This document shows positions 9,144 to 13,263 of a DNA stretch of 14,328 nt, one piece after another. This DNA comes from Promethearchaeota archaeon (lineage in GTDB: Archaea > Asgardarchaeota > Thorarchaeia > Thorarchaeales > Thorarchaeaceae): assembly GCA_027031765.1 (NCBI GenBank), contig JALVPN010000144.1, forward strand, positions 75,734 to 90,061, given 5' to 3'. The position numbers and the translations under genes were made by a program. The notes under the pieces were generated by a model. That model worked only from the letters and a program-made list of their open reading frames with translations. It ran no database searches and was not told the origin of the DNA. How positions within the stretch are numbered: position 1 is the first letter of the stretch; each line of letters opens with the position of its first letter.

Positions 9144-9221
9144 TGGTGCCCCGGCCGGGATTTGAACCCGGGTCATGGGATCGAAAGCCCCAGATGCTTG
9201 GCCGGACTACACTACCGGGGC
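9144..9221 (-). tRNA. tRNA-Glu(UUC), intronless, CCA encoded
   Basis: Reverse complement folds as GCCCCGG TA GTGT AGTCCGGCCAA GCAT C TGGGG CT-TTC-GA TCCCA TGAC CCGGG TTCAAAT CCCGG CCGGGGC A CCA. Confidence 0.97.
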
Positions 9222-9251
9222 GGATGTGCAGGCGTCATGATATCTGTGCTG

Positions 9252-9262
9252 TTATTAAGATT
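9252..9262 (-). promoter_or_regulatory. BRE/TATA of tRNA-Glu (AATCTTAATAA)
   Basis: About 30 nt upstream of the tRNA 5' end, matching the motif in front of the other tRNA genes. Confidence 0.7.
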
Positions 9263-9437
9263 GTGCAGTAGTGGTGTGGCCGGTTGCCGAGCAGGACAAT
9301 CATCGACACGGGCAAACAGACTGCATGCCGTACAGGCCCCAAGACATGTGAGAGAGGGATGGGTGAGAACAGGGTTGGACACGGGGACTGAGCGGCATGC
9401 TATGGGACGCATGTGCCACCGCAGCTCCCGGTCGGTT

Positions 9438-9782
9438 CTACGGGTGCGCACGCAGGACATGCATGTTGATGGGGCCGCCAATGACGGCACGTACACGTCG
9501 CATCAACTGGTCGAGCAGGTTGTGGTCACAGTCCGCACCGGGTGAGGCCTGCAGGATGAACGACTGCAGGTCGCTGGGCGAGGGCAGACCCGAAAGGGTA
9601 CTGTTACGAAAGACGAGTGTGGGGACTGTTGACACCCCATAGGCCCGTGCAATCGAATTGTGGAGGTCAACGTCAATCTCGTGTACCTTCAGGTCAGGGG
9701 TCAGAGAGGCAATCTCAGCCTCAACCATCGACTTGACCGTGCTGCACCAGACACAGTGCTTTGATGTGAACAGCAGGATCAT
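9438..9782 (-). CDS. Thioredoxin/glutaredoxin-fold protein (CVWC) with C-terminal extension
   Basis: LFTSKHCVWCSTVK active site, EIDVD strand, ARAYGVSTVPTL with the cis-Pro, and a TATA-like GGCTTAAAT about 35 nt upstream. Confidence 0.85.
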   Translation of the reverse strand: MILLFTSKHCVWCSTVKSMVEAEIASLTPDLKVHEIDVDLHNSIARAYGVSTVPTLVFRNSTLSGLPSPSDLQSFILQASPGADCDHNLLDQLMRRVRAVIGGPINMHVLRAHP

Positions 9783-9915: not shown

Positions 9916-9992
9916 GGGCCCGTAGCTCAGCTTGGTAGAGCAGCAGGCTCATAACCTGCCGGTCAGGGGTTCAAACCCCCTCGGGCCCACCA
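9916..9992 (+). tRNA. tRNA with CAU anticodon, most likely tRNA-Ile2 (agmatidine-modified); intronless, CCA encoded
   Basis: GGGCCCG TA GCTC AGCTTGGTA GAGC A GCAGG CT-CAT-AA CCTGC CGGTC AGGGG TTCAAAC CCCCT CGGGCCC A CCA. G1-C72 and the lack of three consecutive G-C anticodon-stem pairs argue against initiator Met. A GGGCCC acceptor stem is typical of archaeal Ile tRNAs. Confidence 0.9.
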
Positions 9993-11151: not shown

Positions 11152-12474
11152 TTGACCGAGCACAGACAGTTGTACGACAAGGTCTTCAGCCTGATTGAGC
11201 AGCATGATAGTTGGATGAGCAAGACAATCAACCTGATTGCCTCGGAGAACGTCTCGTCCCCTGCTGTCAGGTCTGCGATAGTCTGCGACTTCAGGGACAG
11301 ATATGCAGAGGGATGGCCTGGCGAACGGGTGTATGCAGGGTGTAAGTATATCGACGAGGTGGAGCTCATTTGCATAGACCTTGCAAAGAAGCTGTTCAGA
11401 GCAGAGTTTGCCGATGTGCGGCCCGTGTCCGGTGTAGTGGCCAACCTGATGATGTACACAGCCATGATGGAACCGCTCGACCGAATGATGGCGCTGTCAA
11501 TCGCACATGGGGGGCACATATCACATGCAAGGAAGAGCCTCGGTGGGACTGCTGGCGCAGTCCGGGGGCATAAGGTGCGTAACTGGGTGTTTGACGAGAA
11601 GGAGTTCAATATCGATGTTGACGCCAGTATCAAGGAAATACGGAGGCTCCAAGAGAAGGGGCAGGAGATAAGGTTCCTGCTGTTCGGGGGGTCTGTCTTT
11701 CCATTCCCGCATCCTGTAAAGGAGTTCCGTGAAATCGCAGACGAGTTCGGGATGCATATCGGGTACGACTCTGCACATGTGTCAGGACTCATTGCAGCAG
11801 GCCGTTTCCAAGACCCGCTACGTGAAGGGGCCGACATAATGACTGCATCCACCCACAAGACCCTACCGGGACCACAGCACGGGATTGTGCTCTCAAAGGC
11901 CGAGTTTGCAGATGCAGTGAAGGTTGCAGCCTTCCCCGGACTGCTCAGCAACCACCACCTCCACAACGTTGCTGGTCTGGCTGTGGCCCTTGCGGAGATG
12001 ATTGAGTTCGGAAAGGAGTATGCAGACCAGGTAATCAGGAATGCAAAGGCCCTTGCACAGGCACTCCATGAACGCGGGTGGAACGTAGTCGCTGAACACA
12101 AGGGGTTCACGGAGTCACACGTAGTACTCGTGGATGTTTCCGAAACGCCAATGAAGGATGGACGGACTGTCGAGGAACATCTTGAACGAGCGAACATCAT
12201 CATTAACCGGAACCTGCTGCCATGGGACAAAAAGATGGGGAGGGACTACAGGCGGCCCGGTGGGATCAGGCTCGGCTCAAGTGAGATGACGCGCCTTGGT
12301 ATGAAGGAGTCCGAGATGGACGCAATCGTCGAGTTCATGCACAGGGTGGTCATGAAGGGCGAAGATGTCGACAGGGTCGCGGCGGATGTGGCCGAGTTCA
12401 GGAAGGACTTCCAGAAGGTACACTTTGCTTTCGACACTGAAACACCCGCCTATGCACACCTGCGTTTCAGATAG
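11152..12474 (+). CDS. glyA: Serine hydroxymethyltransferase, archaeal type
   Basis: NLIASEN, YAEGWPGERVYAGC, HGGHISH, YDSAHV and the PLP-binding STHKTLPGPQHG. TTG start. Confidence 0.96.
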   Translation: MTEHRQLYDKVFSLIEQHDSWMSKTINLIASENVSSPAVRSAIVCDFRDRYAEGWPGERVYAGCKYIDEVELICIDLAKKLFRAEFADVRPVSGVVANLMMYTAMMEPLDRMMALSIAHGGHISHARKSLGGTAGAVRGHKVRNWVFDEKEFNIDVDASIKEIRRLQEKGQEIRFLLFGGSVFPFPHPVKEFREIADEFGMHIGYDSAHVSGLIAAGRFQDPLREGADIMTASTHKTLPGPQHGIVLSKAEFADAVKVAAFPGLLSNHHLHNVAGLAVALAEMIEFGKEYADQVIRNAKALAQALHERGWNVVAEHKGFTESHVVLVDVSETPMKDGRTVEEHLERANIIINRNLLPWDKKMGRDYRRPGGIRLGSSEMTRLGMKESEMDAIVEFMHRVVMKGEDVDRVAADVAEFRKDFQKVHFAFDTETPAYAHLRFR

Positions 12475-12508
12475 TGGCAGGGCCCCAAGGGTCTGCGAGG
12501 GGTTGCAG

Positions 12509-12805
12509 ATGGAGCTGCACGAGGCACAGGATCTTATGCGCAGGATATACCTAGAGCGAGACCGCAGACGAGGAGTTGAACGGACAATCCTACGCACATT
12601 CCAAGAGCTGGCAGAGCTCAGCGATGCGTTCCTCAAGGGGGATGACCACAGCAGCATCAATAGTGAGCTCGCAGATGTCCTCGCCTGGGTCTGTTCCCTC
12701 GCAAACCTCTTGGATGTCGACCTTACGCAGGCACTGACGAAAAAGTACGGCAGTGGGTGCTCTCGGTGCGGGCATACGCCGTGTGAATGTAAGGACACAC
12801 CGTAA
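12509..12805 (+). CDS. MazG-like nucleotide pyrophosphohydrolase with Cys-rich C-terminus (98 aa)
   Basis: ExxE (QELAEL) and ExxD (SELADVLAW) motifs, KY motif, and tail CSRCGHTPCEC. ATG 12509 is preferred; the track start at 12365 lies inside glyA. Confidence 0.85.
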   Translation: MELHEAQDLMRRIYLERDRRRGVERTILRTFQELAELSDAFLKGDDHSSINSELADVLAWVCSLANLLDVDLTQALTKKYGSGCSRCGHTPCECKDTP

Positions 12806-12901
12806 GGCATGCGGTTGACCCGTCCCACGACCCGCCGCGGAATGGGAGACGCCCGGTGACACACACACCCGATAGAGTGACCGTTGCGGGCAACAGACAG
12901 C

Positions 12902-12912
12902 AACCTTAATAT
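12902..12912 (+). promoter_or_regulatory. BRE/TATA of tRNA-Asn (AACCTTAATAT)
   Basis: Identical to 9873-9883 and about 30 nt upstream of the tRNA. Confidence 0.75.
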
Positions 12913-12985
12913 TCCCAACCACTCCACGATGACCCAAGGACGCCGCCGTAGCTCAGTTCGGTAGAGCGACAGCCTGTTAAGTTGT

Positions 12986-13016
12986 AACGCGCTACGGTCA
13001 CGTAGTGCGTGACGAA
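12986..13016 (+). other. tRNA-Asn intron 1 (31 nt, about position 43/44, relaxed BHB)
   Basis: 10-bp hairpin ACGCGCTACG/CGTAGTGCGT with GTCA loop, central helix AGTT/GACG, bulges GT|A and AA|T. An alternative register would shift the cut sites. Confidence 0.8.
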
Positions 13017-13032
13017 TGGCCGGAGGTTCAAG

Positions 13033-13061
13033 TGTCACTGTGGGCACACAGTGGCTGAAAG
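13033..13061 (+). other. tRNA-Asn intron 2 (29 nt, position 59/60, strict hBHBh')
   Basis: h = GGAGG/CCTCC, H = TTCA/TGAA, two AG|T bulges, h' = GTCACTGTG/CACAGTGGC with GGCA loop. Excision restores the T-loop TTCAAGT. Confidence 0.92.
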
Positions 13062-13122
13062 TCCTCCCGGCGGCGCCACTACCTCCTGTTGCACGTATGC
13101 GATTGCATGGATGACTCACCAC

Positions 13123-13134
13123 AACCTCTATAAG
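13123..13134 (+). promoter_or_regulatory. Putative BRE/TATA of tRNA-Lys (AACCTCTATAAG)
   Basis: Variant of the AACCTTAATA motif, about 25-30 nt upstream of the tRNA. Confidence 0.55.
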
Positions 13135-13156
13135 CTGAAACATGTGGGAGAATGTG

Positions 13157-13263
13157 GGGCCAGTGGCTAAGCCAGGTATAGCGACAGGCTCTTAACTTGT
13201 AGAGCGCGAGGCTGCCTCGCACTTGAGGACTGGTCGGGGGTTCAAATCCCCCCTGGCCCGCCA
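13157..13263 (+). tRNA. tRNA-Lys(CUU) with one non-canonical intron (about 43/44), CCA encoded
   Basis: Removing 13201-13230 gives a 77-nt cloverleaf: GGGCCAG TG GCTA AGCCAGGTA TAGC G ACAGG CT-CTT-AA CTTGT TGGTC GGGGG TTCAAAT CCCCC CTGGCCC G CCA. Confidence 0.93.
13201..13230 (+). other. tRNA-Lys intron (30 nt, about position 43/44, relaxed BHB)
   Basis: Hairpin GAGCGCGAGG/CCTCGCACTT with one mismatch, central helix ACTT/GAGG, bulges GT|A and AC|T. Same geometry as tRNA-Asn intron 1. Confidence 0.8.

Follow-up and report, generated by a model that had tools for sequence, protein, structure and literature searches.

The link between non-canonical BHB/HBh' introns in tRNA genes and an (alpha-beta)2 form of the splicing endonuclease EndA is textbook knowledge for Crenarchaeota (PMC4090602; PMC4033280). 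Asgard archaea, one Thorarchaeote included, have been reported to possess an (alpha-beta)2 EndA with an L1 loop together with disrupted tRNA genes (PMC5829648), and later accounts describe two EndA paralogues in most Asgard genomes as well as tRNA genes with heavy intron loads, in which variable-region insertions mostly have relaxed motifs (PMC11291895; bioRxiv 10.64898/2026.10.13.758758). Here I describe introns at position 43/44 of two neighbouring tRNA genes, tRNA-Asn(GUU) and tRNA-Lys(CUU), in a thorarchaeal genome.

As in the Thermoproteales and Aeropyrum pernix, the introns are short hairpins outside 37/38, often several per gene (PMC4090602, PMC5829648, PMC3241643), their splice sites lie in a central helix of four positions with a 3-nt bulge and an intron helix next to it, and EndA combines a catalytic subunit, alpha, with a structural one, beta, and has a loop lysine that is linked to broad specificity. 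Unlike the crenarchaeal cases, they occur in an Asgard host, at 43/44, with a conserved A.G central position and a one-base ambiguity of register. In a comparison that covered the text of reviews, 43/44 is not named among the known intron sites, whereas 45/46 is. The host shares with other Asgard archaea, which belong to the same phylum, many non-canonical and multiple introns, variable-region insertions and relaxed motifs, but the Asgard surveys centre on other classes, the text of the preprint making no mention of Thorarchaeia (bioRxiv 10.64898/2026.10.13.758758), whereas the present work follows a 43/44 intron through a single family, in tRNA-Asn and tRNA-Lys, and analyses its register. The study of Thorarchaeota SMTZ1-83 by Kaneta et al. 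(2018) also found an (alpha-beta)2 EndA with an L1 insert and disrupted tRNA genes; it is a survey, and its text describes no individual introns, positions or motif registers (PMC5829648). The thorarchaeal 43/44 introns are real and conserved, and introns of their kind were already known in Asgard archaea. The original prediction held that either of its two proposed outcomes, a broadly specific endonuclease or an unusual 7-nt variable region, would be notable, which was an overstatement, as an Asgard (alpha-beta)2 EndA with an L1 loop and non-canonical introns had already been published (PMC5829648).

The host genome and its two interrupted genes

The window, by which I mean the whole stretch of 14,328 nt that was analysed, belongs to a 2.95-Mb Thorarchaeota MAG with a G+C content of 59% and a completeness of 95%. 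A search for sequencing runs that contain the window listed only one, a hydrothermal vent metagenome (DNA) that is its probable source, and no run of RNA. The relatives of its EndA protein in named genomes are nearly all from Candidatus Thorarchaeota MAGs. Non-canonical introns are numerous across the tRNA genes of this genome. Introns at the canonical 37/38 position occur in Thr-UGU, Gln-UUG, Ser-GGA, Ser-CGA, Asp and Leu-CAA; the T-arm is interrupted in Asn, Lys-UUU, Thr-CGU, Tyr and Gly-CCC, the D-arm in both Pro genes, Ala-GGC, Met and His, and the variable region in Asn, Lys-CUU, Leu-UAG and Thr-GGU.

ARAGORN does not report the Asn and Lys genes in their unspliced form, and both were found by direct reading combined with an Rfam scan. 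The tRNA-Asn(GUU) gene, which encodes its CCA, extends over positions 12942-13078 of the forward strand (Rfam RF00005, 33.3 bits), with the acceptor stem GCCGCCG/CGGCGGC and discriminator G. Its exons on that strand, at 12942-12985, 13017-13032 and 13062-13078 (coordinates checked by script), are separated by a directly read 31-nt intron at 43/44 (12986-13016) and by a 29-nt intron at 59/60 in the T-loop (13033-13061). The T-loop intron has the strict hBHBh' form, with 4/4 pairs in the central helix H, an inner helix h' of 9 and an outer helix h of 5; a repeated AAG gives it five adjacent placements (e.g., a shift of +1) that all yield an identical product. The tRNA-Lys(CUU) gene, likewise on the forward strand and with an encoded CCA, extends over 13157-13263 (57.3 bits in Rfam), its exons at 13157-13200 and 13231-13263 flanking a 30-nt intron at 43/44 (13201-13230). 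A single tRNA-Asn gene and a single Lys(CUU) gene were found in this 95% complete assembly.

Both 43/44 insertions, which the original prediction had placed at about this position, fall exactly between U43 and U44, and the flanks that it had given, TTGT before and TGG(C/T)C after, are as it had read them. Once the insertions are removed, ARAGORN calls a 77-nt tRNA-Asn(gtt) and a 77-nt tRNA-Lys(ctt). Judged by their sequence, both insertions are very probably protein-spliced archaeal tRNA introns of the BHB type at the non-canonical 43/44 position.

A relaxed splice motif

In the Asn gene the intron begins with i1 = A, continues with a stem of 10 bp (12987-12996/13001-13010) around a loop at 12997-13000, and ends in the tail GACG AA. 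Exon bases A38, G39, U40 and U41 (12980-12983, forward strand) face 13011-13014 to give a central helix AGTT/GACG, in which an A38.G mismatch is followed by G-C, U-A and U.G. The 5' bulge GT|A consists of G42, U43 and i1 (12984-12986), with a cut predicted between 12985 and 12986 because of the junctions seen in intron-free orthologues; at the 3' end, the site AA|T (A A before U44, 13015-13017) has no closing outer helix, and the predicted cut is at 13016/13017. The Lys intron is built alike, with the central helix ACTT/GAGG (13195-13198/13225-13228), bulges GT|A and AC|T, and the tail GAGG AC. These helices, each with A38.G and three pairs, the bulges and the lack of an outer helix confirm what had been predicted. 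A 10-bp intron stem had also been claimed for both genes; this stands for Asn, but the Lys stem (13202-13211/13215-13224) has one C.A mismatch among its ten positions and thus nine pairs (3+6).

The strict hBHBh' form is absent at 43/44 in both genes, as only three of the four central positions are paired, with A38 opposite G. Since A37 stands opposite G45, neither gene has the outer exon-exon helix that would close the 3' bulge (h = 0 under the strict rule). The relaxed HBh' form is present in both, with a 3-nt bulge G42-U43-i1, an inner helix h' (10 pairs in Asn, 3+6 in Lys), at least three of four central pairs, and a 3' site two bases past the helix. When each intron was shuffled 200,000 times, at least three central pairs together with an inner helix of at least three pairs arose in about 0.9% of cases. 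Removal of the introns restores a canonical cloverleaf identical to that of the intron-free orthologues, as expected of a BHB intron of any form.

A purine-purine juxtaposition at one end of H also occurs in the Ser-GGA intron at 37/38 and in the Lys-UUU T-loop intron, and the junctions of both are unambiguous. For this reason the A.G position looks tolerated in the thorarchaeal host, so far as gene sequences can tell.

Two other placements were considered and rejected. The minimum-energy fold of the Asn region contains a third pairing, UUGU/ACGA, which is not a BHB and is impossible in Lys, where G42 would face G. A reading at 44/45, with A44 supplied by i1, would need a bulge of 4 nt that is asymmetric; moreover, i1 varies, whereas the T that precedes GG does not.

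Conservation and covariation across the family

Among the suggested checks was covariation across orthologous genes, and this was carried out on a set of 86 genomes from the family by BLAST and pattern searches followed by retrieval of the regions. A total of 35 distinct orthologous introns at 43/44 were recovered from 11 genera, 18 of them in Asn and 17 in Lys-CUU genes, and their pairing is conserved with compensatory changes. All 35 are flanked by TTGT and TGGYC and are 28-31 nt long. Pair counts refer to 32 aligned rows, three introns of odd length that MAFFT misplaced having been left out, and readings for all 35, the odd-length ones included, were made by end-anchored indexing.

Within the 32 aligned rows, each of the nine intron-stem pairs (9/9) has changed on both sides somewhere in the family. 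The structure is 88.5% paired in these orthologues, as against 64.5% in shuffles and 31-45% when partners are slid, and 104 cells have changed on both sides where 41 were expected. Pairs 39-41 are standard in 100% of the aligned orthologues, and the pair 39:i(n-3), where i(n) is the last intron base, is G-C in 18/18 Asn introns and C-G in 17/17 Lys introns. Of the 35 orthologues, 29 share the A38-G juxtaposition with three of four central pairs, and 30 have just three standard central pairs in the preferred 43/44 register; in five Asn orthologues A38 faces a U and can form a Watson-Crick pair.

The register of the splice sites

A competing register exists as the original prediction described it. 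In it H would be formed by bases 39-42 with i(n-6) to i(n-3), which is fully paired in both genes (GTTG/TGAC in Asn, CTTG/TGAG in Lys), with bulges U43-i1-i2 and i(n-2)-i(n-1)-i(n) and closure by A38-U44. The two registers differ in two respects only, namely the partner of i(n-6), which is i2 in the 43/44 register and G42 in the competing one, and the state of A38, opposite i(n-2) in the former and paired with U44 in the latter. If EndA used the fully paired register, it would cut after i1 and before i(n), and the mature Asn and Lys(CUU) tRNAs would retain two extra bases in a 7-nt variable loop, e.g. AAUGGCC. By published motif rules this would be the more canonical site, and its four central pairs are standard in 32/32 aligned orthologues, with an invariant A38-U44, and its raw pairing is the higher at 95% (32 aligned orthologues). 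Furthermore, i1 is A in 31/35 orthologues, as a retained base might be, and ARAGORN still accepts the 79-nt products. The additional pairs, however, use exon bases A38, G42 and U44, which are invariant in intron-free genes too, and their pairing is therefore uninformative. The pair that distinguishes the 43/44 register, i2:i(n-6), is formed in 32/32 aligned orthologues and covaries (G-C in 27, A-U in 3, G.U in 2), and in two Lys orthologues of one genus it is U-A, where the competing G42 would have to face A. The last base i(n), which a 7-nt loop would retain, varies among A, C and G. By nearest-neighbour energies the fully paired register is the less stable in 34/35 orthologues, the mean difference being 1.3 kcal/mol. 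Variable loops of class I tRNAs are 4-5 nt long, and a 7-nt loop exceeds this range.

The genes that lack the intron also speak to the choice. Intron-free orthologues have the junctions GTTGT|TGGYC and CTTGT|TGGYC, matching the 43/44 products; in all, 72 direct TTGT|TGGYC junctions were found in 56 of the 86 family genomes, some genera also holding intron-bearing genes, and 0/72 contain two extra bases. A search of the family genomes for a tRNA with a 2-nt remnant found none, the pattern giving three matches against eight in a reversed control. One of the three, L189, has an Asn-like T-stem but belongs to a coding region and so was rejected as a tRNA; the other two, uninspected, are judged to be chance matches. 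Since intron-free alleles could be ancestral instead of copies of spliced RNA, their junctions are not proof of the cut sites.

Two further genes of the same genome are relevant. The isoacceptor Lys(UUU) has the variable loop UGGCC. In the tRNA-Leu(UAG) gene (G000:C40:105027-105146, reverse strand), 43/44 is interrupted by a 35-nt intron whose motif is strict and whose geometry matches that of the Asn and Lys introns: bases 38-41 form H (ACCC/GGGU) with 4/4 pairs, GG|A makes up the bulge, and the inner and outer helices h' and h have 8 and 2 pairs, respectively. This intron leaves no possibility of the shifted register. This makes three tRNA genes of the genome that are interrupted at the 43/44 bond (Asn, Lys-CUU and Leu-UAG). 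In the variable region of tRNA-Thr(GGU) (G000:C217:37388-37492, forward strand), a 30-nt insertion has no register that combines at least three central pairs with a 5-nt loop; the best reading of its sequence would put it at 46/47, with a central helix AGGA/GCCG, A.G at both ends and an inner helix of 5 bp.

On this evidence the 43/44 register, with its normal 5-nt variable loop, is favoured over the fully paired one. The expectation that it restores such a loop was borne out by the 77-nt products and the intron-free junctions, and the alternative of a 7-nt variable region, which the original prediction had left standing beside it, is disfavoured by the intron-free orthologues, the covariation, the folding energies and the Leu(UAG) intron. 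I consider it improbable that EndA uses the fully paired register in these two genes. Slightly different is the proposal that both registers are cleaved, or that the two sites are chosen independently, to give a mixture of 5-, 6- and 7-nt loops in which stability or function would be confined to the 5-nt form. The registers are interconvertible by bulge migration over a single pair, since i2 is usually G like G42, and the energy gap given above is small, both of which fit such a mixture. Yet no second gene was found for Asn or Lys(CUU), and selection should disfavour their wasteful mis-splicing, but G at i2 is maintained in 29/35 orthologues all the same; I regard mixed products as quite improbable. 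Taken at the level of the family, a 7-nt loop, or a 5- to 7-nt mixture from two registers, across much of Thorarchaeaceae appears unlikely.

It might also be supposed that no splicing takes place, in which case either the mature tRNA would keep each insertion as a long extra arm or the genes would be pseudogenes in decay. The text of a recent preprint indicates that splicing has yet to be demonstrated in any Asgard cell (bioRxiv 10.64898/2026.10.13.758758), and the hairpin does stand at the position of the long arm of class II tRNAs. Against this, the same genes occur without the insertion in many relatives, and the tail of the intron can pair with bases 39-41 and, between Asn and Lys, covaries with base 39, which makes sense for a splice motif only. 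In addition, the exons are conserved, the stems show compensatory changes, and the assembly, at 95% completeness, yielded no other gene for Asn or Lys(CUU). Retention or decay is thus extremely improbable, and splicing in the 43/44 register is the reading followed below.

The splicing endonuclease

Two homologues of EndA were identified in the genome as PF01974 matches, with no third, and both also match the N-terminal domain. The alpha gene (L001, G000:C38:6207-6639) is cut by the end of its contig; 154 residues remain, and about 45 N-terminal residues are missing when counted against a relative of 195 residues. The remaining part contains the segment GQPVGIRKPK and a Y-8-H-31-K spacing. That relative (L069), a full-length 195-residue alpha homologue, is encoded on a complete Thorarchaeota chromosome and matches the alpha subunit of A. 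pernix (3P1Z_B) with an E value of 1e-43 from residue 16 to its end. Its segment GQPLGIRKPK aligns without gaps with GQPLDVEKPR of A. pernix, placing RKPK opposite EKPR, which contains K44. With the specific loop assigned from the remaining part of the host's own gene and from L069, the alpha subunit has both the Y/H/K triad and the lysine of the specific loop (CSL/L1).

The second EndA-like protein (L002) has no histidine at the aligned catalytic position and by its sequence is for this reason a structural, presumably non-catalytic, beta subunit. Inspection of the endA architecture, which had been proposed as a check, has thus revealed two paralogues with a loop of the crenarchaeal type in alpha. 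The evidence supports an (alpha-beta)2 EndA with a specific loop of that type, linked to broad specificity, at the level of protein sequence comparison. The alternative of a broadly specific enzyme like the crenarchaeal alpha2beta2 form that accepts a mismatched HBh' motif, one of the two explanations in the original prediction, gains support in that there are two homologues, of which alpha has the loop lysine and the triad and beta is without the histidine.

A proposed splicing mechanism

In the precursor, exon bases 38-41 would give up their places in the anticodon stem to pair with i(n-5) to i(n-2), A38 lying opposite G and 39-41 forming three standard pairs. An intron hairpin of 9-10 bp would stack on this central helix from i2:i(n-6) onwards, leaving over the 3-nt bulge G42-U43-i1, and the 3' site would lie two bases past the helix in unpaired RNA, which is the relaxed HBh' motif. 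With the specific-loop lysine in its alpha subunit, the heterotetrameric (alpha-beta)2 EndA is predicted to cut after U43 and before U44, and in doing so would probably tolerate the A.G juxtaposition. Once ligated, the exons should make up a normal tRNA, its variable loop being the 5-nt UGGYC.

Implications

The 43/44 introns are a well-resolved addition to the catalogue of Asgard tRNA introns, conserved at one site throughout a family, in both tRNA types, and with patchy turnover within genera. With their conserved A.G and a register that is ambiguous by one base, they are useful test substrates. They also call for caution, as annotation based on motifs may misplace the junction by one base at either end and so report a false 7-nt variable loop. 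Were the 7-nt loop true, it would be an unusual class I tRNA architecture produced by splicing. The current picture of archaeal tRNA splicing is unchanged by these introns.

Intron turnover and further observations

The introns of different genera are visibly homologous, and the presence of the 43/44 intron is patchy within genera. I read this patchiness as probably the outcome of a single old gain in each tRNA and of repeated losses since. In several genera (L020, L021, L037, L041 and others) tRNA-Asn has three introns, at 37/38, at 43/44 and in the T-loop, except that in L041 the third lies in the D-arm instead of the T-loop. In other genera tRNA-Asn has one intron or none. Both states are found inside single genera, which suggests rapid turnover of the tRNA-Asn introns. 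In most genera the introns of Asn and Lys are alike in being 30 nt long, starting with AG, having a 5-nt loop with the consensus AYTYC and ending in the tail GA(C/G)GAA; the stems of the two are not related. The likeness hints at a shared origin, or at spread of an intron between the similar anticodon arms of Asn and Lys. The copies in the window have diverged from the family consensus in the loop.

Elsewhere in the window, the tRNA-Glu(UUC) gene (9147-9221, reverse strand) and the tRNA-Met(CAU) gene (9916-9989, forward strand) are free of introns. Two long mechanical ORFs, 12277-13143 on the reverse and 9162-9545 on the forward strand, overlap the tRNA-Asn and tRNA-Glu genes, respectively, and are probably spurious. 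Finally, TATA-like A+T-rich boxes lie at 12907-12914 (TTAATATT) and 13128-13134 (CTATAAG), about 25-35 nt upstream of the tRNA genes; as each of the two genes has such a box upstream of it, tRNA-Asn and tRNA-Lys would seem to be transcribed separately.
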